Shown piece after piece: positions 5,486 to 46,462 of a stretch of DNA of 64,000 nt (the stretch's first letter is position 1; every line of letters begins with the position of its first letter). A program made the translations under genes and the position numbers. The DNA lies in IMG/VR virus record IMGVR_UViG_3300023719_000001, positions 1-64,000 of that record; one strand, 5' to 3'. The DNA is from a virus. Under the pieces are notes generated by a model. That model had not been told where the DNA came from. It saw only the letters and a program-made list of their open reading frames with translations, and did no database searches.

Positions 5486-5839
5486 TTACTGCATACTCAC
5501 ACGATTATATACTGACCCATTCTTATCAGCCAGCAAGCACTGCTCTAGATATTCTTGTTTTTTCATAAGCTCGTATTTGGCAGCGAAAATCATACCATTA
5601 TATTCAGTTGCCGCTTCTTCATAAGTGTCTGCGAAACGATAACAATCAGGATTTGCCCCAACGCTAAAAGTCTTTGATCTAGTTTTGTTACTCAAGGTAT
5701 GGAACTTAGAATAGCAACTTCTTTCTTCAAAAGTACCAAAGACAGGCTCACATTTGATGCCAGCCTTTGTATCGTCAAATCTAAATCCAGTACACCATAG
5801 AGGGGTATCTTCTGGGACTGTTTTAATGTCGTAAACCAT
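5486..5839 (-). CDS. hypothetical protein
   Basis: 117-aa ORF. Confidence 0.4.
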   Translation of the reverse strand: MVYDIKTVPEDTPLWCTGFRFDDTKAGIKCEPVFGTFEERSCYSKFHTLSNKTRSKTFSVGANPDCYRFADTYEEAATEYNGMIFAAKYELMKKQEYLEQCLLADKNGSVYNRVSMQ

Positions 5840-5849
5840 ATTTTATTCC

Positions 5850-6086
5850 TCAAATATTATTCGCCGCAAACACAAACGACATATTAAAAATATCTTGGAG
5901 ATTTCTTTCTTGAATCATATTCTCTTCGGATAAAGCAACCTTGATAACTTCATCGTCGGTATGCGTATCATCATATTCTACTGTATCACAAATCTTATAC
6001 AGTTTGCCGTCTTTCTCTTGAAGTAATGTTCCCTCACCAAGTTTTAATGGAGTTGTTTTCTTTTCTTCTCGAATATGTGCTTTCAT
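5850..6086 (-). CDS. hypothetical protein
   Basis: 78-aa ORF coupled to the MTase gene. Confidence 0.35.
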   Translation of the reverse strand: MKAHIREEKKTTPLKLGEGTLLQEKDGKLYKICDTVEYDDTHTDDEVIKVALSEENMIQERNLQDIFNMSFVFAANNI

Positions 6087-19862: not shown

Positions 19863-20159
19863 TTACCTCATTTTTGCTCCGCAATTTAGACAGTATTTTG
19901 AACATAGGGCTATGACTGGTCCTACAGTATTCCCACAGATTGAGCAACCCCATGCCCCATCGTATCTATCTTTACGCCGAATCCAATATCCTCTAGGCCG
20001 CATAGATTCCGCGTCAATTGTCGGAGCGTTTTCAATATTTTTCTTCATGAGAGCGATACCGTCTCGCCAAGCATCGGCTTCTTTTTCACTGTATTGCTTG
20101 ATTGTCCAATTATTTCGGTCAAGCAAAGCATTTGCGTCAATCAACCTAACATCAGCCAT
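19863..20159 (-). CDS. hypothetical zinc-ribbon protein
   Basis: trimmed to MADVRLID...; C-terminal CSICGN...CLNCG; the longer 200-aa ORF would overlap the ligase gene. Confidence 0.35.
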   Translation of the reverse strand: MADVRLIDANALLDRNNWTIKQYSEKEADAWRDGIALMKKNIENAPTIDAESMRPRGYWIRRKDRYDGAWGCSICGNTVGPVIALCSKYCLNCGAKMR

Positions 20160-21483
20160 AAGACACCTCGTTCTTGTCGTTTCGGAATCGCACAAAAGTT
20201 GGGAATTGCAGGGACTCAAGGCCGGTCTTTTTATCCATCGTGACCTCTTTGTATTTACACTCCACAATCTTACCGATGTAATTATCAGGATTTGCCCACA
20301 CAGCAGCTCTCGTAGCATCATCAAAACCAGAACCGACACGAAGCTCGTTGCCCTTGTAGTCCACAACCAGAGCGCCCATCGTACCAGCCAGACGATTCTG
20401 ACCTTCCTCAATCGCGGTGATTCGCAGGTCAACAGTATAGAATCGCTTAATTTTGAGACATCCATTGTGACGAGCCCGACGATAAGGTACGTCCGTGTTC
20501 AACATAAGACCTTCCCAATCGTGCTCGACCGCATAATCAAGCCACTTTGGAATCACGTTTTGGTCTTTTCCTTCATAAACCATGGGAACAATCTCAATAT
20601 TTTCAAGGTGCTTATGAGTAATCTCTGCACGAAGGCAATTCAACCATTCGCGGCGCGTCCGATACGGAACCGTGCATTTACTGCGGTCGAACTCAACAAC
20701 AGGGATGACATCAAAAATAACGAACTTGATGCCCGTCTTGTCCTTACTATCCGAGTTCAATAGGCCAGTGCCATAACGAAAAGCCTCTCCGTCTGACATT
20801 CCTTCTGGATTCTTATAGATAAGTTCGCCATCAAATACCCAAGCATCTCGCTTTGATGCGTCTCCATCGTATAGAGCAAGCAGGTCATTTTTTATATGGT
20901 CGAGTCCTTTAAACTTCTGGACCTGCCGAGAGATGAGCTCGCCTCTATGCATGGTGCCCCTATTGCCATTTTCTTTCTGGCTAAGGCTGAACCAAGTTCC
21001 CTTCTTTAGCTTGACCTTATCAATTGGATATCCCTGCTGAACTTCCCATACAGGAACAATCTCTTCGCCGTACACCTTATTGATGGTAGCTGCTTCAACT
21101 CCAATCGGCAGGTTCTTAGTGAACAGTCGCTTCAGGAACTCTTCGTATTCAGGATTTTTATGTAAATAATTCTGGATTGTTGCGATGGATGCGTCAGAGC
21201 CGGTATTGTGACCGGCACCCATAATATAAAGGTATCCGCAGCTGAGATACTGAACATCGATATCCGGCTTTGCAGCTACCTTCTTATTGATCTTTGCATC
21301 AGACAGGCCAGTAACAATCGCCGGGTCAAGCAGGAATCGGAAGAATGCCATCAGCTCGTCAGCCTCATCTCCAAAATCTTTTCGTGCATCCAGCAAAATG
21401 CGGGTCTTGTCCGTCTTCTTCTTTGCTTTTTGCAATGCCTTAACCATTGCATCAAGCTTACCTATGAGTTCCTTATCTGTCAT
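20152..21483 (-). CDS. ATP-dependent DNA ligase
   Basis: 443 aa; nucleotidyltransferase motifs III (AWVFDGELIY), IV (EGLMLN), V (CLKIKRF); noncanonical motif I candidate KENGNR. Confidence 0.65.
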   Translation of the reverse strand: MTDKELIGKLDAMVKALQKAKKKTDKTRILLDARKDFGDEADELMAFFRFLLDPAIVTGLSDAKINKKVAAKPDIDVQYLSCGYLYIMGAGHNTGSDASIATIQNYLHKNPEYEEFLKRLFTKNLPIGVEAATINKVYGEEIVPVWEVQQGYPIDKVKLKKGTWFSLSQKENGNRGTMHRGELISRQVQKFKGLDHIKNDLLALYDGDASKRDAWVFDGELIYKNPEGMSDGEAFRYGTGLLNSDSKDKTGIKFVIFDVIPVVEFDRSKCTVPYRTRREWLNCLRAEITHKHLENIEIVPMVYEGKDQNVIPKWLDYAVEHDWEGLMLNTDVPYRRARHNGCLKIKRFYTVDLRITAIEEGQNRLAGTMGALVVDYKGNELRVGSGFDDATRAAVWANPDNYIGKIVECKYKEVTMDKKTGLESLQFPTFVRFRNDKNEVSYG

Positions 21484-21496
21484 AAAGCCTCCTTGC

Positions 21497-21523
21497 GTAT
21501 CCTGTGTTATATAGTTATAGCTA
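21497..21523 (-). promoter_or_regulatory. conserved phage motif copy M1 (GTATCCTGTGTTATATAG[ttatag]CTA)
   Basis: 14 nt upstream of the ligase start; matches the ~21-bp consensus with a 6-nt insertion. Confidence 0.4.
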
Positions 21524-21565
21524 ATAAAGAAAGGCTTGTCGTTACGAGCAAGCCATTCCCTTCTC

Positions 21566-21586
21566 GTATCCTGTATTGTATAGCTA
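21566..21586 (-). promoter_or_regulatory. conserved phage motif copy M2 (GTATCCTGTATTGTATAGCTA)
   Basis: sequence identity to the other copies. Confidence 0.4.
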
Positions 21587-21624
21587 AAGAGAGAATTTTA
21601 AGCCTCCGGGATGGAGACTTTTTG

Positions 21625-21645
21625 TAGCTATATTATACAGGATAC
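21625..21645 (+). promoter_or_regulatory. conserved phage motif copy M3 in inverted orientation (TAGCTATATTATACAGGATAC)
   Basis: forms an inverted repeat with M2; 12 nt downstream of the helicase stop. Confidence 0.4.
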
Positions 21646-21656
21646 GCACATAATTG

Positions 21657-23987
21657 TCAATGATTTTCTGAAAATTCTTTCCGTAAAAATTCCTTCAGGA
21701 ACGTCCGCTTGTATGGAACTCTCGAAGTCTTTACAGCCCGATCAAGAGCGTGAGTTTCGGCGCAAATCACACAATACTTCTTGGCACGAGTGATAGCCGT
21801 ATAGAGCCATTCTCTTGTCAACATCAGATATGCGGAGTTGTCCATGCCAACAATCACATACGGTGCTTCACTGCCCTGCAGCTTATGACAACTCAGAGCA
21901 TAAGCAAGTTCAAGCGTTGCCCAGATGTTATTCCCACCAAAGTAATGAGGAATAAATATCGTGCCCCACTGGTCAAAATCAACCAGAATAAAGCTATTCT
22001 CAATCTTTCGGATAATGCCACGGTTTCCGTTGAACACCGGACACTTCTCTTCCTTTTTCTTTGTCTTGAAATTATATGTATGAAGTTCGTAGTTGTTCTT
22101 GTTGATAATAACCTGATCGCCCTCACGCAGAGTGTACACTCTATCCTTGCCATCACCATAGATTGTGACCTTTGCTTCTGCTTGACCACTACTCGGATTC
22201 ACGATTTCCTGAATAGCATTATTGACTTCATAGGTGCAGATACTGCCACGAAGCTTCTGTGGAAGTACAATCTGAATCTTCGCACTATCATTCCCTACCT
22301 TATTATATAAGGTACGGTACTGATTGATGATGTGGTTGAATGACTCACTTGCATCCTTATAGATATCAAGCTCCAAGTCACGAAGTTCACCACGAACCTC
22401 ATTGCCAGCCCAGCCATAAGGAACCAACTGTGTAGCATTACGAACCTTGATGCTCTCCGTAATAATTGCAGACTTAGCTGCCTGACGATGGATCTTAGTC
22501 AAACGAGCTACAGGAACAACCTTAGATGCAAGCATATCTTTGAAGATGTTGCACATACCGATACTCTCAAGCTGGCCGTCATCACCAATCATGATGAATC
22601 GCTTGCCGGTCTCGATTGCCTGAATCAAGTCATAGAATAACTGAGCTCCAACCATAGAGGTCTCATCCAGAATGATAATGTCTTCTTCAAGAGGATTGCC
22701 CTTGTTATGGACGAAACCACCATTCTCAATATCATAACCAAGAAGACGATGAATGGTCTTACCGTCCTGACCAGTAATCTCCTGCATACGAGCTGCGGCA
22801 CGACCAGAAAGTGCAGTCTGAGCAAAAGACTTACCACGAAGAACCTTTAAGACACCAGCGACAACGGTACTTTTACCGCATCCACCAAGACCTGTGACGA
22901 TAGCAATATTGTTAGAGCATACCTTTTTAATAGCATCTCTCTGCTCTTCAGTGTACTCGATACCAAGTTCATCCTCGGCTTCATTGATTGCTACGTCCAT
23001 ATTTCGACCAATCGGATCAACAGGTGCATCCGCCAGTCGCTTGATTTCCTTTGCGATTTCATCTTCCAGATTCCACACTCTAGTTAAAGCAAATTCCTGA
23101 CGGTCATCACTCCACCAAAGTGTTTCACGGACATCGTGCAGATGGAAAAGTGCCCTTTTGATGACTTCTTGGTCACCCTCATTCAAATCAAGTTCCTTGA
23201 TGCAGCTATTGATTGTCTGGTTTGCCGGGATAATAGAGTTTCCTTCTTCGGCACGGGCAGCAAGAAAATGCATGACGTAAGCTTCGATTCTGAATTGCGA
23301 ATTGTGCTTTAAGCCCATATTCAAAGCAAGAGCATCAGCTTTTTTCCAGCCGATGCCATACACATCGTCAATCAGGACGTAAGGATTCTCTTCAATCTTT
23401 CTCACCAGAGTGTCTGCACCATGATATTGACGGACAAGCTTTTCAATAGCACTAGGGGTCAGACCGTACTCAATTAGCTTTGTGTACGCCTCACTGTTAT
23501 CAATGTTGTTTTCATAAGTATCAATGATCTTTTGAGCTCTGCCTTCCGTAATACCACCAACAGTGCAAAGCGACTTGATATCACCATTCTTGATAATCTC
23601 ATACGGATTTTCGAATGCTTCATAAAGTATCTCAAACTGATGGTCGGTCAGGATATAATGGAGAAAGCTTTTCTGTTCTTCCGGGTCAGTAATCTCTTGA
23701 AACTCATTCATATAAATGATTTTATACTGGTCACCAAACTTTTCATGATGAACATACTCACCACAGAACGAATAAGTTTTATTCATATCGAGGCTAGGAA
23801 CGTTGCCCTTTAACCGGAGGTCACTGTATCGACTCATAACAGGATTTCCCTGCTTGACTTTTACCACCTCGGCAGAGAAAGTGGCGAAGCCGCCGGGCTC
23901 CACCTCCCTCCCATCTTTCGGATAAAAGACTCGTTTTATCCTGATGTAGCAACGGATCATATTTTCATTGAATTTTTTATCTGCCAC
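21657..23987 (-). CDS. RecD-like / Dda-like SF1 DNA helicase
   Basis: 776 aa; Walker A TGLGGCGKST, motif II IIILDETSM, C-terminal SF1 motifs. Confidence 0.8.
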   Translation of the reverse strand: MADKKFNENMIRCYIRIKRVFYPKDGREVEPGGFATFSAEVVKVKQGNPVMSRYSDLRLKGNVPSLDMNKTYSFCGEYVHHEKFGDQYKIIYMNEFQEITDPEEQKSFLHYILTDHQFEILYEAFENPYEIIKNGDIKSLCTVGGITEGRAQKIIDTYENNIDNSEAYTKLIEYGLTPSAIEKLVRQYHGADTLVRKIEENPYVLIDDVYGIGWKKADALALNMGLKHNSQFRIEAYVMHFLAARAEEGNSIIPANQTINSCIKELDLNEGDQEVIKRALFHLHDVRETLWWSDDRQEFALTRVWNLEDEIAKEIKRLADAPVDPIGRNMDVAINEAEDELGIEYTEEQRDAIKKVCSNNIAIVTGLGGCGKSTVVAGVLKVLRGKSFAQTALSGRAAARMQEITGQDGKTIHRLLGYDIENGGFVHNKGNPLEEDIIILDETSMVGAQLFYDLIQAIETGKRFIMIGDDGQLESIGMCNIFKDMLASKVVPVARLTKIHRQAAKSAIITESIKVRNATQLVPYGWAGNEVRGELRDLELDIYKDASESFNHIINQYRTLYNKVGNDSAKIQIVLPQKLRGSICTYEVNNAIQEIVNPSSGQAEAKVTIYGDGKDRVYTLREGDQVIINKNNYELHTYNFKTKKKEEKCPVFNGNRGIIRKIENSFILVDFDQWGTIFIPHYFGGNNIWATLELAYALSCHKLQGSEAPYVIVGMDNSAYLMLTREWLYTAITRAKKYCVICAETHALDRAVKTSRVPYKRTFLKEFLRKEFSENH

Positions 23988-36052: not shown

Positions 36053-36073
36053 GTATCCTGTATTGCATAGCTA
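36053..36073 (-). promoter_or_regulatory. conserved phage motif copy M4 (GTATCCTGTATTGCATAGCTA)
   Basis: 15 nt upstream of the gene start at 36037. Confidence 0.4.
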
Positions 36074-37562: not shown

Positions 37563-37841
37563 TTAATATTCTCTATCACGGAACATTTTAGATTGAGCAC
37601 GAGTCAGTCTGTTGTTCCGACCATGCTTAGGTCTGAATGCGGACTGCAGTTTGTTATTTGCATATTCGAGATCGCTCTCCAAAATCTTCGCAGCTTCTTC
37701 AATATAATCTCGAATTGCACAATACTGGTCACTGCTAATACAGTGTGTCTTTAGATAATCAAGCATATCGACTGCCTGATTCTTCAAAAGAAGCGTATCT
37801 TCAAGCTGAGTTTTACGCCGTTGGAAGAATTCCTCGTTCAT
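37563..37841 (-). CDS. hypothetical protein
   Basis: 92-aa ORF. Confidence 0.35.
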   Translation of the reverse strand: MNEEFFQRRKTQLEDTLLLKNQAVDMLDYLKTHCISSDQYCAIRDYIEEAAKILESDLEYANNKLQSAFRPKHGRNNRLTRAQSKMFRDREY

Positions 37842-38230
37842 TACTCATCGCCTCCTTCGATAGTAATAAGATAGGTCCTGTTTTCATATGCAGCCCAGTC
37901 AAGATTTTGTCCACACAGTTTGCAAACTTTCTCCTTCCAATTTACCGGATTGCCGCACGTTGGACATTGATAAAGCTTACAATGATTTGTCGGATAAGAA
38001 AGAATCGGCATTTCTGGTTTATTTTCTGCTTGGTTTACCAGAAGTTTGACAAACCTTATGTACTTGTCTGCATAACATAATATCATCTCGTAAGCATGAG
38101 TGGTATGTTCACGAGGGCGAAATTCACCATCTGTATGACCAAGACGAATCTGTTTTTCCATGATTTCTTTCGCTTCATCGAAAGTCATCTTTTCAATTTC
38201 ACGTTTTGTAGCGTGCAGCCAATCTTTCAT
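37841..38230 (-). CDS. hypothetical zinc-ribbon protein
   Basis: 129 aa; CPTCGN...CKLCGQ. Confidence 0.4.
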   Translation of the reverse strand: MKDWLHATKREIEKMTFDEAKEIMEKQIRLGHTDGEFRPREHTTHAYEMILCYADKYIRFVKLLVNQAENKPEMPILSYPTNHCKLYQCPTCGNPVNWKEKVCKLCGQNLDWAAYENRTYLITIEGGDE

Positions 38231-38505
38231 AATACACCACTTTCAGCAAACGCATAGTTATGCTTTGCATTCTTATCTGTCCATACGCCCCAATCCATCT
38301 TGTGATGACAATCAGAACATTCACACTCGAACTTTTCCAGTTTCGTCACACAAAACGGACAGAGATACGTGTTCTTCTCCTTCTGAAAGATAGGACTTGC
38401 TGGAATGCTCAAAGAACCTGGGTCGATGGTTACATTGATAGGAATTTTGCTGTTCATCGTGTTACCTCTTATTTGAATTAGCCTTTTATGAGATTTTCTT
38501 ATCAA
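38227..38505 (-). CDS. hypothetical zinc-ribbon protein
   Basis: 92 aa; CPFC...CECSDC. Confidence 0.35.
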   Translation of the reverse strand: MIRKSHKRLIQIRGNTMNSKIPINVTIDPGSLSIPASPIFQKEKNTYLCPFCVTKLEKFECECSDCHHKMDWGVWTDKNAKHNYAFAESGVL

Positions 38506-38911
38506 GCTTCCGCAGTTCTAACTTACTTGGAAGAAAATTTCTACAGAAGTATGCACTTCCAAACGACACTCCCTCGACAGGACTGTCTGTGTGTTCAGGG
38601 TCCATAAATCCGATTCGAGAATCAAAACACAACATCTGTACATCATTTTTAAAAATGTCAAATCGTGTTTTCCCCTGAATACTATTTGCAGGAAGCAGTA
38701 GAGCAAACGGTTTTTCAAGTTCATATGCTCTACGCAGCACATCATCCTTCTTACTAAAAGGAGGATTCGAAATCATAACATCCCAACGTTCTGGTTCATA
38801 TGTAAAGAAATCTTGCCCATTATCGATATGGCTACACTCTACTTTGTACCCAGCATTTCTAAACACCTGCACAAAAGCAGACCATTCTTTATCAAACGGA
38901 CACCAAATCAC
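38486..38911 (-). CDS. N6-adenine DNA methyltransferase-like protein (Dam-like; NPPF motif), possibly 5'-truncated or split
   Basis: 141 aa from a GTG start; catalytic motif IV DVMISNPPFS; no AdoMet motif I within the ORF; a short upstream ORF in another frame ends in GTGA overlapping the start. Confidence 0.5.
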   Translation of the reverse strand: MIWCPFDKEWSAFVQVFRNAGYKVECSHIDNGQDFFTYEPERWDVMISNPPFSKKDDVLRRAYELEKPFALLLPANSIQGKTRFDIFKNDVQMLCFDSRIGFMDPEHTDSPVEGVSFGSAYFCRNFLPSKLELRKLDKKIS

Positions 38912-38924
38912 TGCTTCACTCGAC

Positions 38925-38930
38925 GGGGGG
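38925..38930. repeat. G6 homopolymer tract immediately upstream of the Dam-like gene
   Basis: cgacGGGGGGcaaa; a 1-nt length change would fuse the upstream reading frame to the MTase ORF. Confidence 0.5.
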
Positions 38931-39028
38931 CAAATTCAAGCAATGGAATAACCGCGTAAACCGGTGTGTATCGCTCATCGCCTGCCGCAGATCGGTCAGC
39001 TGTTAAATATCCTTTGTTTTCTGGCAAA

Positions 39029-40505
39029 TTATCCTCCTTGCTTTTCTGGAAAATGCTCCTTAGTTACTGCAACGCAGAACGGTTCGATTTCAGATCCCCA
39101 GATAGCAGTACCATCACCATACGTACTTTCAAAGACAAGCGGAAAGCCACCAATCCCATCGAATAGACTGCCAAGCGTAGGATTTTCACCAATATACGGC
39201 TTCATCTTCTGGCAAATCCAGTACCACTGCGGTAACGCAATCGAATTGCCGAGAGCCTTATAACGAGCTGCGTCAGAAGTCTTGTGCTTCTTCCCATTCT
39301 CATCGATCCAGTCACCGATATCAGTCCATCCGTCAGGGAAACCCTGTAACCGTTCATCCTCCAAAGGAGTCAAGCGGCGAACAATCCATCGTAGATTCTT
39401 AGTTTCCTTCTCTGCAATCAGGTCAGTAGCGTCCTTATAATCACGAGATTTCATCGTGCTGGCGTGTTCGCTTTCCTTGTACTCACCAATGCGCTGCATT
39501 GCAAAGGCTTTCTTTTCAACGACCAGCGGCATATTATTACCGCCCGTTCCCCACTGAGCAGTACAAGTCGGACTTGTATCACCCTGCTGAGTGTATCGAG
39601 CGTCCTGACTGTGACTCTCAAATACCACCGGTGAAATCTTTTGTTTTGAATTATGTAATGATGGATTTTCTACCAAGCAAATTAGCGTCTGGTCTTGCAA
39701 CGTAGAAATCGTTGCGCTCAATTCAGTTTGAACCAGAGCGCCTTTACCTCCGCCTTCACATCCAGAACGGATTTTTAGAGTGTAGGCTGCAGGTTCTGTG
39801 CATCGAGTCGAAGTCTCTCGATGGTCTGACTCCAATACTCGTCCAATTCCTTCTCTTCCAGACCTTCTTGTTCCTTCACTTTCTGCACCACCTGTGACAG
39901 AGTTCCTGGATTCCACCATTCGATCATATCCAGCAACGCTTGCTTCAGGAGTTCGGGCAAAGGTTTTCCACGCCGGGATGCTCTCACAAGAATCCCCTGA
40001 CATGCTCGTGCGCTCAAATAGAATTTCTGAGGCACGTTGTCCTCCAAAATCCATGACAAGCGCGATTCTCTGGCGGCGCTGGGCGACTCCCCAGTATTTA
40101 GCGTCGAACAATCTCCATGCAAGAGACCATCCATTACCGGAAATCGCTCCAGATTTTTCCCACTTTCCGTTCTTTCCTGAAGGTCGAGGAATTGAAACGT
40201 CTGGCTCGACAATGCGTGCAAATCTTTCCAACACACATCTGAAGTCTTCACCTTTGCTTGAGCTGAAAGCTCCTCTGACATTTTCCCAGATTGCGAATTT
40301 TGGATATTCTCCATTAGTGGCCTCCCTCATTTCTGTAATCACACGAATCATTTCAAGGAACAATCCAGAGCGTTCACCAGCCAAACCTTCACGTTTACCG
40401 GCCTGACTCAAATCTTGGCATGGACTGCCTCCTGTGATACAGGAAACCGGTTCAATCTGCCATCCATGAAGTTGTGTAATATCTCCGTAATGCTTCAGTT
40501 TTCAT
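39029..40505 (-). CDS. DNA (cytosine-5)-methyltransferase, circularly permuted; leader ATG at 40505 is out of frame by +1 and an in-frame TGA lies between them
   Basis: hand translation gives HYGDIT (III), GGSPCQDLSQAGKREG (IV), FAIWENV (VI), QRRQRIALV (VIII), TRD SPTCTAQWGTGGNN, RRLTPLEDERLQGFPD (IX), KALGNSIALPQ (X), then C-terminal FDGIGGF (I) + SEIEPFCVAVTKEHFPE; region ~50% GC. Confidence 0.6.
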
Positions 40506-40516
40506 CCCTCCTTTTC

Positions 40517-40537
40517 GTATCCTGTATTATATAGCTA
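40517..40537 (-). promoter_or_regulatory. conserved phage motif copy M5 (GTATCCTGTATTATATAGCTA)
   Basis: immediately upstream of the GGAGGG RBS and ATG of the C5-MTase leader. Confidence 0.4.
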
Positions 40538-40641
40538 AAACTCAGAAAATGAGCGAAAAAATAATAGACGTATCAACGTCATATTATTTCGTCGCCTATA
40601 AAACAAAAGATTTAGCAGATTTTATGTATGCCCTATCGGGC

Positions 40642-40718
40642 TGGTGGGACAGGAGAGATTTGAACTCCCGACCAAGCGGTTATGAGCCGCCAGCTCTGAC
40701 CAACTGAGCTACTATCCC
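40642..40718 (-). tRNA. tRNA-Met (anticodon CAT; elongator Met or Ile2-type), CCA encoded
   Basis: cloverleaf folded by hand: acceptor GGGATAG/CTGTCCC, D-arm GCTC..GAGC, anticodon loop CTCATAA, T-loop TTCAAAT. Confidence 0.8.
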
Positions 40719-40908
40719 ATAAAAACCAGTTAAACAGCTGCAACTATTCAACTGGGCACCTTCCTTATAAAACACTATTGCATCTATATCATATAGACGA
40801 GGAAGGAATAACAGCGATGCACATTTCCTATATCTCGCCCCTTTCGGGGTAGTATTTCGCACAGGCGCGGCCGGGACTGACCGCTTAAAATCCCTACCCA
40901 TACGAAAT

Positions 40909-40983
40909 TGGAGCAGCGAAAGGTAGTCGAAACCTCATCCTCAGCTTGGAAGGCTGATATACTAGCCGTTGTACGACCGCTGC
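40909..40983 (-). tRNA. tRNA-Gly (anticodon TCC), CCA encoded
   Basis: acceptor GCAGCGG/TCGCTGC, anticodon stem-loop TCAGC-CTTCCAA-GCTGA, T-loop TTCGACT. Confidence 0.7.
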
Positions 40984-41089
40984 ATGAGAACCCAGCTTAC
41001 AAAGCACTACTGCACCATCACTGGCGAGCCGGGAATAATAGTGGCAATCAAAGGAGATCAACAAACGGTACGCAACCATTCTATGACCG

Positions 41090-41171
41090 TGGTGCGGATA
41101 GTGGGCATCGAACCCACACGCTAAAGCACCAGAGCCTAAATCTGGCGTGTCTGCCATTCCACCATATCCGC
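41090..41171 (-). tRNA. tRNA-Leu (anticodon TAG), type II, CCA encoded
   Basis: acceptor GCGGATA/TATCCGC, anticodon loop TTTAGGC, long variable arm, T-arm GTGGG-TTCGATG-CCCAC. Confidence 0.8.
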
Positions 41172-41176
41172 ATAAA

Positions 41177-41247
41177 TTGCGCCAACAGGGGTCGAACCTG
41201 TGATGGAGGAGTCAAAGTCCTCTGCCTTACCGCTTGGCGATGGCGCA
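41177..41247 (-). tRNA. tRNA-Gln (anticodon TTG), no encoded CCA
   Basis: U1-A72 acceptor TGCGCCA/TGGCGCA, anticodon loop CTTTGAC, T-arm ACAGG-TTCGACC-CCTGT. Confidence 0.75.
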
Positions 41248-41314
41248 TCATGTACCCAGCTTACTGGAGAATAATCCTACTGCCTTACTATTAAGGAGCT
41301 GGGAATAATAGGAA

Positions 41315-41390
41315 TTGGTCCGAGTGACAGGTCATGATCCTGCGGCCTCATGCTCCCAAAGCACGCGCTCTTCCAACTGAGCTACACCCG
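41315..41390 (-). tRNA. tRNA-Pro (anticodon TGG), CCA encoded; atypical T-loop
   Basis: acceptor CCGGGTG/CACTCGG, D-arm GCTC-AGTTGGAA-GAGC, anticodon loop TTTGGGA; T-loop ATCATGA is unusual. Confidence 0.6.
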
Positions 41391-41397
41391 GATATCA

Positions 41398-41480
41398 GTG
41401 CTACCAGCGGGGGTCGAACCCGCACGTCTTTCGACATCGGTTTTTAAGACCGAAGCGTACTGCCTATTTCGCCATGGTAG
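41398..41480 (-). tRNA. tRNA-Leu (anticodon TAA), type II, no encoded CCA
   Basis: acceptor GCTACCA/TGGTAGC, anticodon stem-loop TCGGT-CTTAAAA-ACCGA, long variable arm, T-arm GCGGG-TTCGACC-CCCGC. Confidence 0.8.
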
Positions 41481-41562
41481 CATATAAAAGCTGTCTGTCC
41501 AGCAGTCAATCGTCTTTCCGATTTGCCAGTTGAGTTTGCCATCCGCTCATCTACACATGAGC

Positions 41563-41646
41563 TGGTAGGGATAGAGGGATTCGGACCCTCACGTCTCTCG
41601 ACACTGGGACTTGAAACCAGCGTGGCTGCCATTTCACCATATCCCC
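41563..41646 (-). tRNA. tRNA-Leu (anticodon CAA), type II, CCA encoded
   Basis: aligns with the Leu(TAG) copy; anticodon loop TTCAAGT, one 31-39 mismatch, G1-U72 wobble. Confidence 0.65.
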
Positions 41647-41712
41647 ATATTGCCGGTCTTTCCCGGCCGTCAGCCCCGCTCAGGGCATTTTCGGAGGAAG
41701 AAAATGTCTTAA

Positions 41713-42381
41713 TTACTCATTACCAAGCGTATCAGCGATATCCTTGAAGTCATTCCACTTGATTTTGACAATTACTCGATTACCTCTGCGGTCTTTCAAC
41801 TCAACCTTTGGACGACCAACCAGACCTTCCATATAAATGTCATCAATCGAAACCGTAGACTTCGGATGTTGACACACAAACTTGATACCGTCTCGAATCG
41901 TCCCTGTAAACAAAATAGGAACTACTTGGATACCAAACATCTGAGCAGTCTTTTCAACCCACTCTCTACTCTGGTAGTTATCACCAATCAGGACATCGAA
42001 CAAGATGAACCACTCATCAGGTCAGTATCCATGACCACATCCTTGAATTTTGCCACCATAACCCTCTCCAAAGAGGATTACTTCTTTATCACCGTAAGTC
42101 TGTTCAAACAATTCCTCTGCTTCAGAAGTACCGAAAATTTCATTTAGTGCATTCAGCAGATTCTTTGGAAGTTCTGCACGTTCAGTTCGTCCGGCAAAGC
42201 TGACTTTATGACCGTCCCAGCAAACACGCACATTCGTGCCATCCACTTTCTCAGTAAATTCCCACTCATTATTTTGTAGGAACTCAATGGTTTCATTACG
42301 AAAATCACCGATAATCAGCTTTTTAGTGCCTTCGATATCACGATTAAACACCGTTTCGATTTTTTCGTAGGTTTTCATCAA
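41713..42381 (-). CDS. Rnl2-like RNA ligase interrupted by a single in-frame TGA (at 42022-42024)
   Basis: motif I EKVDGTN, motif III ILFGEGYGG, then ...GHGY-TGA-PDEWFILFDVLIGD (motif IIIa), motif IV EGLVGRP, motif V IVKIKWNDF; both halves verified by hand to be in the same frame. Confidence 0.6.
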
Positions 42382-42448
42382 AAATCACCTCAAAATTCTA
42401 ACGTATTTTCGTTAATTATTTTAACGAAAATCACGATAAAATGTCTAT

Positions 42449-42832
42449 TTAATTCAACTCTTCCAGCTTCTTCATTAGCTGGTCAACGTCCATATCTTCA
42501 AGTTCCTTGTCCTTCTTCTTTGCAACGATCTTCATAATCTTATCACGTTGCGCCTTCTTCTCTGCGGCGTCCACACGTGCCTCGTACTCGGCCAGCCTGA
42601 CAGAAACGATGTATTTGACTAGCTCAATCTTATTTTCCAGTTCTGTATTTTCGGCGCTCTTAACAGCCAGCAAAGAATCTTCATCTGCGGTTTTCTTTTG
42701 ACGGTTCAGAGTCTTAAAAATCGCATCCAGTGCCTCGACGCTCAGAGCCCACAGATCTTCAACAGTCATAACACCCTTATAGTTGAAGCGATAGCGATTA
42801 CGGGTTGCAATTTCAAACAGATTCTTTTCCAT
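42449..42832 (-). CDS. hypothetical coiled-coil protein
   Basis: 127-aa ORF, Lys/Glu-rich C-terminus. Confidence 0.4.
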   Translation of the reverse strand: MEKNLFEIATRNRYRFNYKGVMTVEDLWALSVEALDAIFKTLNRQKKTADEDSLLAVKSAENTELENKIELVKYIVSVRLAEYEARVDAAEKKAQRDKIMKIVAKKKDKELEDMDVDQLMKKLEELN

Positions 42833-42846
42833 AATTATTTCTCCTT

Positions 42847-44919
42847 TCAGATAACCACTTTCAAAATTCGCTCAGTAGCTCCCTGCACCTTAACAATAAA
42901 GGAATCCTGCTTCGTTTCAGAGAATCCAACGCCGGACAGCTGATCATTTACCGACTGAACTGCCATCTGAGAACCCAGCGCCTCAAATACTCGCTTATGC
43001 TGTAGCAATTCCGCCTTCAGGAATTCGTTGTAAAATCCGTTCGGCTTTTCGGGGTTGACGCAATCCTTGAGCATGAAGAAGTAGTGACGATTGCCATTGC
43101 CGGTCTGTTCGTCCCAGTAGTTCGGAGAGTACATCGCCACAGACACAGGTACGAACTGGTTGGAACTCACACCCCAAATTTCACGGGTGCTGGTAGAACT
43201 GGGAAGCAGTTCCTTGATAGAGAATTTGCCATCCTTCAGAGTGACCTTTGCCACAGCTACATTCTGACCACCATGCAGCGGCTTATCGTAGTTAAACGAG
43301 TAGATGTTGCCATCGAATTCGATTTCAGCACGGAAACCGGTTTTGCCGCCGCGACTAGCGAAGCAGTTTACATAGAAGCTGTACTCGCCTTCCTTCATCT
43401 TTTTGATGTCAGGCCAGGTGATATTCTCGACCGCGGCCTTATAGCGAATGGGACGCATAATATCTACGTCCAGGCGGCCATCAGTACGAGGGTGCCACTT
43501 GCTGCCGAAATAGATGTGATTCTTATCGGGTTCAATGCAATGAGCATCCTCATCATTTTCATCCCACTCGCCCGGCTTATCGTTCCACTGAATAGAGAAA
43601 CGCAGCACGCCATCGACTTTGCCGCCAGCATTCTTGACGTTCTCTCGAATCTGGCTGTCAGTCATGTTACCTGTATACGCCCAACTGAATCCATTTGCCC
43701 ACTTGAACATAGACGGCGCACTCTTATCCTGCGGAGCAACCAGAGACACCATGTTCTTCGAGAACCGATTTTCCATAAACAGTTCCAGACCTGCTGCAGT
43801 AGGCAGAACTTCTTTGACGAACTTTTCAATACCAATTTCTTCTGCGCGGCCGAACTTCTTGGGGTCGGTACCCAGAGACTTTGCCATTGCCTCGAACGGA
43901 TTCGCAGCGCCAAGCACACGAGGAGCGGCATCGCGGTTGCAGAACAGAATGTTGTTGGCAGTAATATCATCCAGAGTGGCGAACCGACGACCCAGACTGT
44001 TCATATAGCCCAGCTCAGTGACGGTTTTCTGTGCATCCTCCAGCATCTTCTTAGTGAAAATTGCCTTTGGACGCTTATAGTTTGCAGGAGCAACAACCTT
44101 CTCAAAGGCAGTGACGGCAGAATCTACATCCATACCTTCGCTCAAATTGATAAGAAGGGTGCCGATAGCGGTGTTACGAATGCGAAGCTGCGCCGCCGTA
44201 GCATACGTAGGGGCAAGCCATACAAAGGCAACCTTTTCGTCAACAGACAGTTTGTCATAACCAATCTTATCGTGCTTAAACTCCTTTACAGACCGCTCAA
44301 ACTCCTTGCCGCGATACAGACTATTCTGTGCAATCAGCTCCAGAACAGTATCAACCGCATCCATAGTCAGTTCTTCCAGAGAACGCTTGAATACATTCGC
44401 CGAATCGCGCCACTGAGCCATCTTAGCAGCTACGTCATCTCCGCTGGTAATGAAACGCTGCGGAATATTAACTGCGAAATGATCCCAAGTATGTACGTCC
44501 TTATGGTTTTCGTCGTACTCGTAGTTCATCACGGTGCCGAACATATCTCCAGAACCGATCATATTGCGACTGACAAAGTACGGATTCACAATGGTACGGC
44601 TCTTCACATAGGCAGCCAGCGCATCAACAACCGGCTGATACTTGGCAGACTTTGCATCGAAATCCCAGATGGAAATCAAATTATAATTCTTATCAAACGC
44701 CACCAGTTTACCGATATTTTTCACAAAACGGCGGCAGCAGGAACAGTCATACTCACGACGCTTTCGGAACAGCTCATTCGTGCCGGCCGGGAAGCTGTCG
44801 AGATACAGATTGTACAGTTCGTCTTCGTCTGCATCGGTGATAAACAGAGGGTTTTCGCTCTTCACCATCTCGTCAAAATGCTCCTGCAGCAGAGTACGGA
44901 ATTCTTTAAAATCAGACAT
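42847..44919 (-). CDS. large hypothetical protein (690 aa; Cys cluster DCSCCRRF), GC-richer than its surroundings
   Basis: long ORF with GGAG RBS and motif M6 upstream; natural amino-acid composition, unlike the 621-aa antisense ORF. Confidence 0.55.
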   Translation of the reverse strand: MSDFKEFRTLLQEHFDEMVKSENPLFITDADEDELYNLYLDSFPAGTNELFRKRREYDCSCCRRFVKNIGKLVAFDKNYNLISIWDFDAKSAKYQPVVDALAAYVKSRTIVNPYFVSRNMIGSGDMFGTVMNYEYDENHKDVHTWDHFAVNIPQRFITSGDDVAAKMAQWRDSANVFKRSLEELTMDAVDTVLELIAQNSLYRGKEFERSVKEFKHDKIGYDKLSVDEKVAFVWLAPTYATAAQLRIRNTAIGTLLINLSEGMDVDSAVTAFEKVVAPANYKRPKAIFTKKMLEDAQKTVTELGYMNSLGRRFATLDDITANNILFCNRDAAPRVLGAANPFEAMAKSLGTDPKKFGRAEEIGIEKFVKEVLPTAAGLELFMENRFSKNMVSLVAPQDKSAPSMFKWANGFSWAYTGNMTDSQIRENVKNAGGKVDGVLRFSIQWNDKPGEWDENDEDAHCIEPDKNHIYFGSKWHPRTDGRLDVDIMRPIRYKAAVENITWPDIKKMKEGEYSFYVNCFASRGGKTGFRAEIEFDGNIYSFNYDKPLHGGQNVAVAKVTLKDGKFSIKELLPSSTSTREIWGVSSNQFVPVSVAMYSPNYWDEQTGNGNRHYFFMLKDCVNPEKPNGFYNEFLKAELLQHKRVFEALGSQMAVQSVNDQLSGVGFSETKQDSFIVKVQGATERILKVVI

Positions 44920-44949
44920 TGTTATTCTCCATTCAAATACTATTTTTAA

Positions 44950-44970
44950 GTATCCTGTATTATATATCTA
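44950..44970 (-). promoter_or_regulatory. conserved phage motif copy M6 (GTATCCTGTATTATATATCTA)
   Basis: ~30 nt upstream of the 690-aa gene start. Confidence 0.4.
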
Positions 44971-45005
44971 ACGTATTAAAATCAAGGAGCCGAAGCCCCC
45001 TGTTT

Positions 45006-45932
45006 TTAATTTTTATGGAAATATTCGACCCAACCTTTGTATCCTTGTCTGAAGCTAATGTAGGCAACCTTGCTACACTTTCTTCCGATAATGTCTGCAA
45101 GAGGGTCTTTACCATTTCCGAAACTAAGTTCTGCAAGATTAAATTCTGGATTATTCTTACAGTAGTCGTAGACCTTCACGTATTCGCCGTTTCTGGTTAG
45201 ATGCCTTCGATCTAAAGCCTTTGAGTGATATCTTTTTTCGAGGATGTTATTCAACCGCATAAAATAGGTATGAATTGTATGCACAGACATCTTTGGGTCA
45301 CTGTCTGCACCGATACTATCCTCGGTTTTACGAATGATGTAATCACCATTCATGACATAGAATGCCCTATACCCTCCCTTATTGGGAGCGTCATACTGTT
45401 TCATTTCATAACACTGCTTAATAATATCCATCAACTTTGCATCAACACCTGTCTTATCAAGAACAGTACAAGATTCAAAATCGACATCGTTAATCGTCAG
45501 GTTAGAAACTTCTTCAGAAGTAAGGCCAATCCAGTACAGTGCAGCAATCACGTTCATACGAATCTGATATGGCTCTTCATACTTATTTAAGAAGTCAACA
45601 AACTCATCAACTGATGCAAAGTATTTATCCGCATACATATTGTCTGCGCTTACATCGCTCTCTGAAAAGTCAGCCAGATCATACATGCTTGTTTTGTTTT
45701 CGCTTTTGATGTAGCCTGTGATTATTGACTTCACATTTTTAAACGAACGACTCGAGTTCACCCAATTATATTTGGCAAACATCTTTACGAAATCATCTTT
45801 TGTGAAGTCAAACAACTCATACCCACGCTCAGCCTCGTAACCCAGAACATGGTTAAGCGTCGATACAACAAACTCACCGCTTCTATCAGAATACTTTTCA
45901 GCAAAAGCTTTGATCTTTTCTTCAGTAAGCAT
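45006..45932 (-). CDS. putative site-specific (tyrosine) recombinase-like protein, weak
   Basis: 308 aa; C-terminal HTIHTYFMRL...RR...VAYISFRQGY weakly resembles box II of the integrase family; hairpin plus T-run follows the stop. Confidence 0.3.
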   Translation of the reverse strand: MLTEEKIKAFAEKYSDRSGEFVVSTLNHVLGYEAERGYELFDFTKDDFVKMFAKYNWVNSSRSFKNVKSIITGYIKSENKTSMYDLADFSESDVSADNMYADKYFASVDEFVDFLNKYEEPYQIRMNVIAALYWIGLTSEEVSNLTINDVDFESCTVLDKTGVDAKLMDIIKQCYEMKQYDAPNKGGYRAFYVMNGDYIIRKTEDSIGADSDPKMSVHTIHTYFMRLNNILEKRYHSKALDRRHLTRNGEYVKVYDYCKNNPEFNLAELSFGNGKDPLADIIGRKCSKVAYISFRQGYKGWVEYFHKN

Positions 45933-45985
45933 AGTGGCACACTCCTTCTTATTATATGTAGTGTACCATTAACCATTATAAAAAA

Positions 45986-46405
45986 TCAAGCAAATGCGGC
46001 AAAATTTTGAAATTCCATGGTATGTTGTACGCCGCTCAGGAATGCTGCGAGTAAAAACGGTTCATCCTTGCATCTTGCCATTGCGATCATATTCATATGA
46101 CGCTCAGACAAGACACCAAGCTTTTTGATGAACTGTCCTTTGTTAAGTGTATCAGTCTCTTCACAAAGAACGATACTATCAACCTCTAGGAAATCGCAGT
46201 CTTCTTTCGAGAGTAGAACATGAACCGGAGAACGCTTGTATATTCTGGAAGACAACGGATTCCCTTTGATTGTGGGACTGAAGAAGTTGCGCTTGTTGTT
46301 GCTTGTCACAACGAACGGTCGAATACCGCGCTGCTGATGACCTGTTGCATTGGACAAATCGACCAACCAAACCTCTCCGACCTTTGGGTCAATATTGTTG
46401 TCCAT
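45986..46405 (-). CDS. MazF/PemK-family endoribonuclease toxin
   Basis: 139 aa; VGEVWLVDLSNATGHQQRGIRPFVVTS and DTLNKGQFIKKLGVLSERHMNMIAMA match the MazF fold signature; no MazE-like ORF directly upstream. Confidence 0.7.
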   Translation of the reverse strand: MDNNIDPKVGEVWLVDLSNATGHQQRGIRPFVVTSNNKRNFFSPTIKGNPLSSRIYKRSPVHVLLSKEDCDFLEVDSIVLCEETDTLNKGQFIKKLGVLSERHMNMIAMARCKDEPFLLAAFLSGVQHTMEFQNFAAFA

Positions 46406-46441: not shown

Positions 46442-46462
46442 TAGCTATATTATACAGGATAC
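46442..46462 (+). promoter_or_regulatory. conserved phage motif copy M7, inverted orientation (TAGCTATATTATACAGGATAC)
   Basis: lies between the MazF start and the stop of the upstream gene. Confidence 0.4.

Follow-up and report, generated by a model that had tools for sequence, protein, structure and literature searches.

T4-type hypervariable regions are known from large phages, where promoters and stem-loops flank mobile regulatory cassettes and homing endonucleases are found among them. Phages are also known to repair tRNAs, as T4 does with Pnkp and Rnl1, and bacteria possess Pnkp-type enzymes that combine kinase, phosphatase and ligase. Here we describe a locus that can be compared with both, the block 38486-46405 of a 64,000-nucleotide stretch of viral DNA (hereafter the window; positions 1 to 64,000 of the IMG/VR record IMGVR_UViG_3300023719_000001), which carries two methyltransferase (MTase) genes, tRNA genes, an RNA ligase gene, a gene for a protein of 690 amino acids (aa), a gene resembling those of tyrosine recombinases and a MazF-like toxin gene. 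It seems likely to us that this block consists of a conserved backbone and of two exchangeable cassette slots, A and B, which flank a tRNA array. As in T4-type hypervariable regions, gene-sized cassettes lie between conserved flanks, short promoter-type repeats stand at the cassette starts, HNH endonuclease genes are interspersed, and the cargo is enriched in tRNA and putative counter-defence functions. The locus differs in belonging to another lineage, that of uncultured gut phages of ~120-150 kb, in having a repeat that is probably a repressor operator, and in the functional theme of each slot.

Two further systems are close to parts of this locus. MrpR, the master repressor of SPβ, has the fold of a tyrosine recombinase but has lost the recombinase function; it binds a repeated element, SPBRE, in ~10 promoter regions of SPβ, and its operon includes YopM, which acts on the host MazEF system (PMC10516654). 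The same repressor, under the name SroF, is treated together with its antirepressor in a related preprint. For C5-cytosine MTases, Slaska-Kiss et al. engineered circular permutants of a topology termed Type B (cp62M.MpeI and cp58M.SssI), which were the most active of their permutants and comparable to the wild type, and a scan of 20,677 REBASE entries yielded 27 natural permutants, all permuted in the variable region and none of Type B (PMC5944983).

Relatives of the phage were collected from IMG/VR as 143 loci encoding the SSB-like protein at 96-99% aa identity, on contigs of ~70-150 kb that come mostly from human-gut data sets. Presence counts refer to the 80 loci kept, and 74 of the relatives retain both genes that flank the variable part. 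No close relative was found in INPHARED, and the only match to a cultured phage, through a backbone protein, was to the distant Geobacillus virus E3 (39% aa identity).

Two slots around a conserved tRNA array

All open reading frames (ORFs) listed in the original prediction were found again at its coordinates, every one on the minus strand, and its seven tRNA genes were confirmed at 40642-41646. That prediction had viewed the block as a horizontally assembled hotspot, closed at one end by the recombinase-like gene and a solo toxin. A recombination hotspot is indeed what the comparison reveals, as the content varies among 74 relatives, but it does not behave as one island-like unit. At the corresponding location, the recombinase-like gene occurs in 74 of the 80 loci, the MazF-like gene in 69, the 114-aa and 208-aa genes upstream of the latter in 67 and 62, respectively, and, at the opposite end, the 92-aa gene (38227-38505) in 78, and the tRNA array keeps the same order in all ten relatives scanned. 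The recombinase-like gene and the toxin gene are thus part of the backbone and do not mark the end of an acquired segment. The C5 MTase gene is found in 63 loci, the 690-aa and 127-aa genes in 25 each, the N6-adenine (N6A) MTase gene in 19 and the RNA ligase gene in 6.

Between the recombinase-like gene and the 92-aa gene, the 74 relatives display ~40 architectures of a combinatorial kind, spanning 4.3-8.0 kb. No relative without the whole block was found among them; the shortest version still measures 4.3 kb, and only sub-segments vary. Synteny thus agrees with the expectation of variable content between conserved flanks, but not with a block that can be absent altogether, since both its ends and its middle are conserved. 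In pairwise alignments, all homology breaks fall at gene edges or at repeats: at 44947 and 41703 for slot A, at 42408/41703 for the RNA ligase cassette, at 40497 and 39039 where the C5 gene is compared with a locus carrying a 240-aa protein instead, and at 39043/38497 for the N6A cassette. The identity to a single relative also changes from gene to gene. In contig 110678, the MazF-like and recombinase-like genes are 99.9% identical to those of the window, the 127-aa gene 100% and the RNA ligase gene 99.9%, with drops to 87% in the 690-aa gene and 77% in the C5 gene, and the best match to the C5 gene (97.4%) lies in a different contig. Judged from these alignments, the block is a recombination mosaic at single-gene resolution, and the unit that varies is 44947-38497, divided by the conserved tRNA array, rather than 38486-46405.

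Clustering of the ORFs in the relatives gives each slot a main pair of alternatives. In slot A, 56 loci encode a 737-aa fusion of polynucleotide kinase (AAA_33), Metallophos and Rnl1-type ligase (RNA_lig_T4_1) domains, 23 encode the 690-aa and 127-aa pair, and 6 have both, so that the two are not strict alternatives; a PF09414 RNA ligase and HNH endonucleases are occasional additions. In slot B, downstream of the tRNAs, 59 loci carry the C5 MTase and 15 an unrelated protein of 240 aa, whose motifs provisionally suggest an MTase and which has no Pfam match; here the occasional additions are the N6A MTase, two small unknown genes, an N4/N6 MTase, radical-SAM genes and a TnpB-like gene.

Both slots begin at a copy of the same 21-bp repeat (TAGCTATATAATACAGGATAC). 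At the left junction of slot A it occupies 44950-44970 (coding strand TAGATATATAATACAGGATAC, containing TATAAT), and homology to relatives with other cassettes stops at 44947, just past it. At the left junction of slot B an exact consensus copy occupies 40517-40537, 4 nt ahead of the C5 Shine-Dalgarno sequence, and homology to a relative carrying the 240-aa protein stops at 40497. No convincing direct or inverted repeats other than this 21-bp family were seen at the internal cassette junctions.

Some further observations concern the mosaic and its surroundings. HNH homing-endonuclease genes of at least four families lie beside or inside the tRNA array in several relatives (loci L001, L004, L006, L008, L028, L033, L038, L064 and L076); in L001 and L038 insertions split the array by ~1 kb, and L064 has a TnpB-like gene of 429 aa. 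Just outside the block, a 129-aa zinc-ribbon-like gene (37841-38230) is also variable, being present in 26 of the 80 relatives at 42-55% identity, with homology breaks nearby at 38082 and 37832. Finally, three places share an 18-nt microhomology (coding strand ATTTNCCAGAAAANCAAG; 39012-39054 and 39200-39217): the C5 gene at its 3' end (HFPEKQ), the N6A gene at its 5' end (LPENK) and a site close to where the segment with the relocated motif I begins. This microhomology may be a trace left by the joining of cassettes.

The permuted C5 methyltransferase and its overlapping frame

The first gene of slot B (39029-40498; C5 METHYLTRANSFERASE) encodes a C5-cytosine MTase of 489 codons (PF00145, 8e-25). 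In the allele group to which the window belongs, the alignment of relatives places the start at a CTG 8 nt after AAAGGAGG, and in another group at a GTG; translation table 11 permits CTG, and an ATG close by is in another frame and lies just 1 nt from the Shine-Dalgarno sequence. The ORF as first listed spans 39029-40411. In translation a stop codon precedes motif IV, and motifs I-II are C-terminal in the same frame. Motifs I (FxGxG; LFDGIGGF), IV (PCQ; GGSPCQDLS), VI (ENV; WENVRG), VIII (QxRxR; QRRQRIALV), IX (RRLTPLEDERLQGFPDGW) and X (GNSIALP) are all in this frame, hereafter frame A, although they follow the order III-IV-V-VI-VII-VIII-target-recognition domain-IX-X-I-II instead of the canonical order from I to X. 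BLASTP aligns residues 1-432 with residues 46-471 of the MTase of Streptococcus phage Javan422, and residues 441-485 with its residues 3-45; the MTase of Ruminococcus phage NatCom_23091 gives the same permuted alignment, with E-values of 2e-80 and 3e-83 for the two canonical enzymes. BLASTP thus gives, without ambiguity, the order III..X-I-II, which puts the new N-terminus between motifs II and III; apart from the permutation, the protein is colinear with the canonical enzymes.

The permuted order is found in every relative that carries the C5 gene and in the cultured Faecalibacterium phages Toutatis and Lelie. The frame of 489 codons is intact in 32 of the 62 relatives carrying the gene, at 5-8% nucleotide divergence that is mainly synonymous, and frame A is under purifying selection over 40498-40060 and 39774-39032. 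Because of this selection, and because engineered permutants with the same topology are active, we read the protein as an active natural circular permutant of Type B. It shares with the natural Type H enzymes (M.BssHII, M.Alw26I, M2.Eco31I, M.Esp3I and M2.BsaI) the presence of all ten motifs and a short linker joining motif X to motif I, and differs from the natural permutants in having its N-terminus between motifs II and III; the topology of the engineered Type B enzymes is identical to its own. No report of natural Type B permutants was found in the later literature, a search that lay outside the REBASE entries themselves. A group I or II intron, or another RNA element, was also considered behind the permutation and rejected, as Rfam found only the seven tRNAs.

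The C5 gene hosts a second frame, ORF B (40314-39775, minus strand, 179 codons), in its +1 frame. It has its own ATG 6 nt after the Shine-Dalgarno-like GAGGGAGG, which is made of Met-Arg(AGG)-Glu codons of frame A. The pattern of substitutions and the conservation of ORF B in distant phages indicate that it is very probably a real coding feature. In an alignment of 20 alleles, the variable codon position switches from frame A to frame B at ~40050 and back at ~39790. Over 40059-39778 the synonymous fraction is 0.68 in frame B (13 synonymous to 6 nonsynonymous changes) and 0.21 in frame A (4:15), with ~0.22 expected by chance. Frame A itself reaches 0.68-0.70 over 40498-40060 (chance ~0.22) and 0.79 downstream of 39778, with 0.60 in the relocated motifs I-II (0.23 expected). 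Seven genes from phages of Firmicutes, Proteobacteria and Actinobacteria, at ~55% nucleotide identity, keep 60% aa identity in the last 23 codons when read in frame B and 24% when read in frame A.

Homologues of ORF B are widespread. A tBLASTn search with ORF B or with its last 52 residues matched ~135 phage records and 530 plasmid records, the plasmids being mostly P1-like; among the annotated matches listed, all but two lie under MTase genes or under coding sequences (CDSs) annotated as hypothetical. In the five homologues outside the phage family that were placed (Javan422, NatCom_23091, dmt of E. coli phage P1, gp12 of Vibrio phage CP-T1 and gp116 of Mycobacterium phage Porcelain), ORF B is in the +1 frame of the MTase CDS in all five. 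In P1, CP-T1 and Porcelain this frame is open over 153-165 codons and ends ~35 codons after motif VIII; it begins just before motif VI in P1 and CP-T1 and at motif IV in Porcelain, and in P1 it occupies 2159-2656 of locus L168. Javan422 likewise has the full GAGGGAGG ahead of the ATG of ORF B, and NatCom, Toutatis and Lelie have a shorter GAGG there; P1 and Porcelain showed no clear Shine-Dalgarno sequence at this place. In ~360 clusters ORF B had been called as a separate hypothetical protein of 140-180 aa, without a Pfam family. AlphaFold, run with 92 sequences, predicts a disordered N-terminus of 83 residues, where the constraint comes from frame A, followed by a helical domain of ~95 aa with four C-terminal helices (predicted local distance difference test, pLDDT, 70-86), for which PDB and BFVD contain no significant fold match.

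ORF B could alternatively be the target of a programmed +1 ribosomal frameshift or of transcriptional slippage, yielding a truncated MTase isoform in which the motifs up to VI-VIII are followed by the C-terminal helices of ORF B. Some genomes do contain hard-wired fusions, in which frame A upstream continues into frame B downstream, or frame B into the target-recognition domain; PF00145 is fused to the C-terminus of ORF B in Toutatis CDS1 and in clusters P0141, P0155, P0162 and P0179, and an N-terminal part that is predicted to be disordered and constrained only by frame A would also suit such an isoform. However, no slippery site was found at the transition from A to B in the window, ORF B has an ATG of its own with the Shine-Dalgarno-like sequences mentioned above, its start precedes motif VI in the distant homologues checked, and gene callers return it as a separate protein. 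A frameshift product therefore appears unlikely, and an independent small protein is the more likely of the two on this sequence evidence.

The opposite doubt concerns the gene itself, which might be a pseudogene, decaying or mis-assembled, such as one left by a tandem duplication, with the +1 ORF as a by-product of nucleotide conservation or of GC content. About half of the relatives' alleles do have frameshifts, a 4-nt insertion in the PCQ motif among them, a poly-G tract swaps the frames in Toutatis and Lelie, no canonical ATG, GTG or TTG precedes the catalytic Cys in the allele of the window, and two other cargo genes are broken there. Decay would nevertheless be hard to reconcile with a permuted order common to all carrying relatives and the two cultured phages, with 32 contigs that keep the whole frame through mainly synonymous divergence, with the CTG (GTG elsewhere) at 8 nt from AAAGGAGG, and with a region of ORF B that is conserved as protein in frame B and not in frame A, among close alleles as well as in the seven distant genes. 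We consider this explanation quite unlikely.

In about half of the relatives' alleles (e.g. L151, L109, L139 and L009) the insertion, TTAG, lies in the Cys codon of PCQ and turns the motif into GGSPC-stop with a +1 shift; the long ORF then begins at another ATG and is without the catalytic Cys. The poly-G tract of the C5 MTase differs in length between Toutatis (L161, ~2650) and Lelie (L167, ~1990), so that the three reading frames are joined differently, frame A upstream leading into frame B downstream in Toutatis, and frame B upstream into frame A downstream in Lelie. The cause is a second homopolymer switch or else an artefact of sequencing.

Returning to ORF B as a separately translated gene, the nearest precedent is M.EcoHK31I, in which the gene of the α chain also encodes, in another frame, the β chain (PMC2836561). 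In both cases the whole sequence for a second polypeptide is contained in a C5 MTase gene and read in a different frame. The β chain of M.EcoHK31I supplies a motif IX that the α chain lacks, whereas frame A has all motifs here; ORF B would consist of a disordered N-terminus and a helical domain, and it is conserved across many phage MTases and not confined to one enzyme. Beyond PMC2836561, a literature search found nothing on an overlapping ORF in dmt or other C5 MTase genes. We tentatively propose, with a confidence that falls slightly short of even, that a wide subfamily of C5 MTases from phages and mobile elements carries a conserved, separately translated +1 gene over motifs VI-VIII and the following linker, encoding a small helical protein that would work with or regulate the MTase. 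This subfamily would comprise P1 Dmt, CP-T1 gp12, the Omega-type mycobacteriophage methylases and the enzymes of streptococcal prophages and gut Clostridia phages, and its gut-phage branch would additionally be a natural Type B permutant.

The remaining cargo and the tRNA array

The second MTase gene of slot B (38486-39027, minus strand; N6A METHYLTRANSFERASE) encodes a small N6A MTase (phrog_799, 9e-27) with an NPPF motif. Its start, TTG in the window and TTG or ATG in intact relatives, lies one base after the stop codon of the C5 gene, and its Shine-Dalgarno sequence lies inside the 3' end of that gene. Intact relatives encode 180-181 aa, and the window only a fragment of 141 aa (38486-38911), as its poly-C tract at 38930-38925 has 6 C instead of 7 and is out of frame; one added C restores the full ORF of 180 aa. 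As far as can be read from its sequence, the N6A MTase is off in this genome. The tract is C7, in frame, in 13 contigs, C6 in 6 contigs and the window, and C11 in 1 contig, and C6 and C7 occur in otherwise near-identical contigs whose flanks are >90% identical. The tract is therefore probably a reversible ON/OFF switch operated by slipped-strand mispairing. The arrangement resembles the phasevarions of Haemophilus, Neisseria, Helicobacter and Campylobacter, with their Mod genes, in that the length of a coding homopolymer sets the frame and ON (C7) and OFF (C6, C11) versions coexist. It differs in that the gene is a phage-borne orphan N6A MTase of 180 aa, EcoRI-methylase-like, that the tract is short (6-7), and that switching is deduced from the lengths seen in contigs.

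In slot A, the 690-aa protein gene (42847-44919, minus strand) matches phrog_1735 from end to end (1e-253) and is the first gene of a two-gene module. The local copy of Pfam gave no match, and the relatives of the protein in databases carry the precomputed family PF26675, on which we found no literature. Its homologues, found in 548 phage records at 32-54% identity and nearly all annotated as hypothetical, occur in Vi01-like Salmonella and Klebsiella phages, Bastille-like Bacillus phages, Ralstonia phage RSL1 and phages of Caulobacter and cyanobacteria; four distant sequences have a mean column identity of 63%. A further database search, begun from an alignment of distant homologues, led back to the close relatives. 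With more than 590 IMG/VR loci in addition, this is a family-wide gene with many alleles, which does not fit the role of island cargo first assigned to it. The 127-aa partner gene (42449-42832, minus strand; phrog_2018) always lies directly downstream, and its homologue directly follows the 690-aa homologue in Bacillus phage JBP901, Klebsiella phage Menlow and Ralstonia phage RSL1. By this gene order the pair is a conserved and mobile two-gene module. That it lies next to RNA-repair genes and tRNAs gives no more than a hint of its function.

The best nucleotide match to the 690-aa gene among the fetched loci is 89%, and it is 87% in a contig that is 99.9-100% identical on both sides; from these values the gene itself seems to be a hotspot of allelic replacement. 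In Menlow (L164, 3501-8547) directly after the module come genes annotated as ribose-phosphate pyrophosphokinase and nicotinate phosphoribosyltransferase, a pair resembling a phage NAD-reconstitution pathway, and in RSL1 a macro-domain (appr-1-pase) gene lies just upstream of it. In JBP901 (L163) the 127-aa homologue (48% identity) occupies 5593-5961, a stretch without annotated CDS directly after gp067.

The RNA ligase cassette (41704-42407, minus strand; PF09414) shows indel boundaries at 42408/41703 against relative L014. The gene itself (42381->41713) contains a nucleotidyl-transferase motif (KxDG; EKVDGTN) and is split by an in-frame TGA at 42024-42022 into the pieces 42022-42381 and 41713-42003. 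All 26 relatives compared have an intact gene of 222 aa, with Arg or Ser at this position, codon 120 (CGA->TGA), and an intact relative matches PF09414 at 2.3e-16. By its nonsense codon the RNA ligase, too, is off in this genome. Recoding of the stop codon was considered and rejected, as the relatives have a sense codon and TGA ends 27 of the 65 long minus-strand ORFs in the window; the other ORFs of this set end in TAA (37) and TAG (1). Compared with known phage tRNA repair, the likeness lies in the relatives, most of which have the kinase-phosphatase-Rnl1 fusion directly upstream of the tRNA array and some an extra RNA ligase; the window is without the fusion and has the 690-aa and 127-aa module and the nonsense-bearing RNA ligase instead.

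The array that separates the two slots (40642-41646, minus strand; ARAGORN and Rfam) comprises tRNA-Leu(CAA), -Leu(TAA), -Pro(TGG), -Gln(TTG), -Leu(TAG), -Gly(TCC) and -Met(CAT), and a terminator-like hairpin follows tRNA-Met at 40580-40567. tRNA-Leu(UAA) and tRNA-Leu(UAG) are encoded though TTA and CTA codons are rare, and the tRNAs mostly match the minor, A-ending codons of the phage.

A repressor homologue, a 21-bp repeat and the question of a single island

The MazF/PemK-like toxin gene (45986-46405, minus strand, 139 aa; PF02452 3.8e-19 over residues 8-108; phrog_1936) is 95-100% identical at the aa level in 69 of the 80 relatives. It is the first gene of a two-gene unit, and no antitoxin gene was recognised for it: the 114-aa gene upstream has no Pfam, PHROG or PADLOC match and is set apart by a promoter, and the gene downstream encodes the recombinase-like protein of 308 aa (45006-45932, minus strand), after which comes a terminator-like hairpin (45002-44983, minus strand).

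This 308-aa protein had been taken for a tyrosine recombinase, and profile and Pfam comparisons identify it instead as an integrase-fold homologue of MrpR/YopR/SroF, without the catalytic residues of tyrosine recombinases. Searched alone, it matches phrog_5830, which is annotated as integrase, at 3.8e-11 and has no match to Pfam Phage_integrase. Its family is small, with just 48 relatives among 1.84 billion representative proteins. In an alignment of 32 members only W134, G136, Y298 and W301 are invariant or nearly so; there is no conserved Arg-His-Arg triad, and the box I position has no Arg. The Pfam family MrpR_N_CB is matched by 24 of the 32 members (best E 1.9e-17), and the family profile, over positions 1-317, aligns with residues 2-305 of PDB entries 8bj6, 8bjv and 8a0a at E 4e-15 to 1.5e-14. 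In this alignment the invariant Gly and Tyr (G136 and Y298) coincide with G136 and Y304 of MrpR, the two residues critical for the stability of that repressor (PMC10516654). The protein is thus a candidate phage repressor rather than an active recombinase. No MrpR-like match was found in cultured phages.

The second element that recalls SPβ is the 21-bp repeat. The repeat search (GTATCCTGTATTATATAGCTA) found direct copies at 36053, 40517 and 44950 and an inverted one at 46442, and with at most 3 mismatches the window has 7 copies where 0 are expected, the remaining three (two direct, one inverted) being clustered at 21497-21645. Every copy has a TATAAT-type hexamer on the coding strand and overlaps a -10 hexamer. 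Each of the two inverted copies is enclosed by a consensus promoter, TTGACT-17-TATAAT before the MazF-like gene (46477->46449, minus strand, overlapped by the repeat at 46442-46462) and TTGACA-17-TATAAT at 21.6 kb, and the direct copies stand 4-25 nt upstream of the ribosome-binding sites of the C5, 690-aa, 97-aa (after SSB) and 443-aa genes. Of the 74 loci of relatives, 67-72 carry the repeat at four unchanged positions, irrespective of the cassette; it is found upstream of the MazF-like gene in 68 relatives and 39 nt after the repressor gene in 69. By analogy with SPβ, the repeat is probably the operator of the MrpR-like protein, overlapping early promoters. If so, the MazF-like and repressor genes would form an autoregulated unit and each slot would be under the control of the repressor. 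The cluster at 21497-21645 is bordered by genes for a helicase-like protein of 776 aa (21657-23987) and a ligase-like protein of 443 aa (20152-21483), and may represent another switch region under the control of the repressor.

The likeness to MrpR and SPβ thus includes an integrase fold of ~310-325 aa without recombinase residues, a full-length profile match (E 4e-15), the equivalents of G136 and Y304 as the most conserved residues, a short repeat scattered in promoter regions and a repressor operon tied to MazEF biology. The differences are that identity is only ~20-25%, that the repeat has 21 bp against the 15-bp SPBRE motif and is likened to it by placement at promoters, that the partner is a phage-borne MazF-like toxin and not YopM, and that no integrated copies were found for the present phage in species-representative genomes.

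With the end gene reassigned, a single GC-rich island acquired horizontally from 38.5 to 46.4 kb and bounded by a tyrosine recombinase and a solo toxin becomes highly improbable. In its favour, the block has the highest GC among 8-kb segments of the window, it contains defence-type and tRNA genes, and the 308-aa protein does match the 'integrase' phrog_5830. However, the recombinase-like gene, the MazF-like gene and the tRNA array keep their position in nearly all relatives, the catalytic Arg/His/Arg is not conserved and the full-length match is to MrpR, no relative without the block exists among those compared, its segments have different nearest relatives, and GC is uneven within it and equalled by backbone genes.

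For composition, we compared the block with the whole window and its 8-kb windows, by GC and by tetranucleotide z-scores. GC is 0.451 in the block and 0.414 in the window, with a mean of 0.419 and a standard deviation (sd) of 0.020 among 8-kb windows, which puts the block at about +1.6 sd, near the maximum. The rise is real but modest. Only three components account for it, with 0.508 in the tRNA array, 0.486 in the 690-aa gene and 0.474 in the C5 gene; values at or below average are found in the N6A gene (0.390), in the RNA ligase gene (0.411) and in the recombinase-like and MazF-like genes (0.398), and backbone genes outside the block are equally GC-rich (0.480 in a 382-aa gene, 0.471 in the SSB-like gene and 0.475 in the gene 16207-14687). 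In tetranucleotides, the 14-17 kb stretch (z 2.5-2.8) is at least as deviant as the block (2.0-2.4). Composition is real but weak evidence and gives no pointer to a foreign origin.

The long antisense ORFs that had been linked to the high GC, of 202 aa (39798-40406) and 621 aa (43084-44949), both exist. The longer one is the exact codon complement of the 690-aa gene, in whose sense frame TTA, CTA and TCA account for 1 of the 690 codons, against 1.8% window-wide; the SSB-like and 382-aa genes have none of these codons and likewise have long antisense ORFs. Such ORFs thus arise because TTA, CTA and TCA are rare in the sense genes, a codon-usage effect common to the backbone, and neither they nor GC richness can be taken as signs of foreign origin. 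As genes they were rejected by substitution analysis: among 25 alleles of the 690-aa gene the synonymous fraction is 0.65 in the sense frame, which is under purifying selection, and 0.20, the chance level, in the antisense frame. The 202-aa ORF has its third codon positions in common with the sense frame, so that substitutions give no independent signal.

An integron-like system, in which the integrase-fold protein would recombine the 21-bp repeats as cassette attachment sites, would account for an integrase-fold gene adjoining the slots, for a repeat exactly at the 5' junction of each slot with homology breaking at or just past it, and for a near-invariant Tyr near the C-terminus of the family, but is very hard to credit when the R-H-R triad is not conserved, MrpR showed no activity in recombination and phages with a Tyr-substituted MrpR can still enter the lytic cycle (PMC10516654), the repeats occur only on the 5' side of the slots and also at places that do not vary (upstream of the MazF-like gene, after SSB and three times at 21.5 kb), always overlap a -10 hexamer as expected of operators, and are missing from the internal junctions 42408/41703 and 39043/38497.

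We therefore favour two exchangeable slots in a conserved backbone, and suggest the following scheme. A backbone unit at 46.48-45.0 kb would be transcribed from the consensus promoter overlapped by the repeat, through the MazF-like gene and the MrpR/YopR homologue to the hairpin, and the tRNA array at 41.65-40.64 kb separates the two slots. Each slot starts right after a repeat carrying TATAAT, just upstream of its first ribosome-binding site, and, if the repeat is an MrpR-like operator, both would be repressor-controlled early units. Slot A would take RNA- and tRNA-related cargo and slot B DNA-modification cargo, here the permuted C5 MTase with a small N6A MTase that would be translationally coupled to it. 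Homologous recombination between co-infecting relatives would exchange the cassettes by way of the conserved flanks, that is the repressor gene and repeat, the tRNA array and the 92-aa gene, with the repeat and its conserved neighbour as left-hand homology, and the HNH homing endonucleases seen in the arrays of relatives may help. The cargo would serve counter-defence, with tRNA supply or repair directed against anticodon nucleases and methylation against restriction.

Several points weigh against this scheme. Exchange of cassettes by recombination is deduced from patterns of homology, binding of the repeat by the MrpR-like protein is argued by analogy with SPBRE, and we infer the counter-defence role of the cargo. 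For the 690-aa and 127-aa module, PDB profile searches, PADLOC and the local Pfam gave no fold or family. The 308-aa protein alone reaches only E 0.002 against MrpR_N_CB, its assignment coming from the family profile, and two queries found no integrated copy of the phage in 185,579 species-representative GTDB genomes, which counts against a temperate lifestyle and hence against the role of a repressor. The C5 MTase is dispensable in some lineages, since about half of its alleles are frameshifted in the catalytic PCQ motif, and the nonsense codon of the RNA ligase and the C6 tract of the N6A gene could be assembly or sequencing errors in a single sequence.

A mosaic region is in itself ordinary phage biology, yet this one is a clean example of two themed slots around a tRNA array, and a good map of the sites of putative counter-defence cargo in an abundant family of uncultured gut phages. 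Its 690-aa and 127-aa module is a widespread pair, conserved from Bacillus to Klebsiella and Ralstonia phages. The III..X-I-II order of its C5 MTase is the topology that engineers found most active and were puzzled not to see in nature. If ORF B is translated, an enzyme family in wide use would have a partner not recognised before, and with P1 this can be tested directly in E. coli. A phage MTase with a poly-C ON/OFF tract suggests bet-hedging in the modification of phage DNA, and the repressor homologue together with the 21-bp repeats would extend an SPβ-type repressor/operator architecture to this abundant family of the gut.

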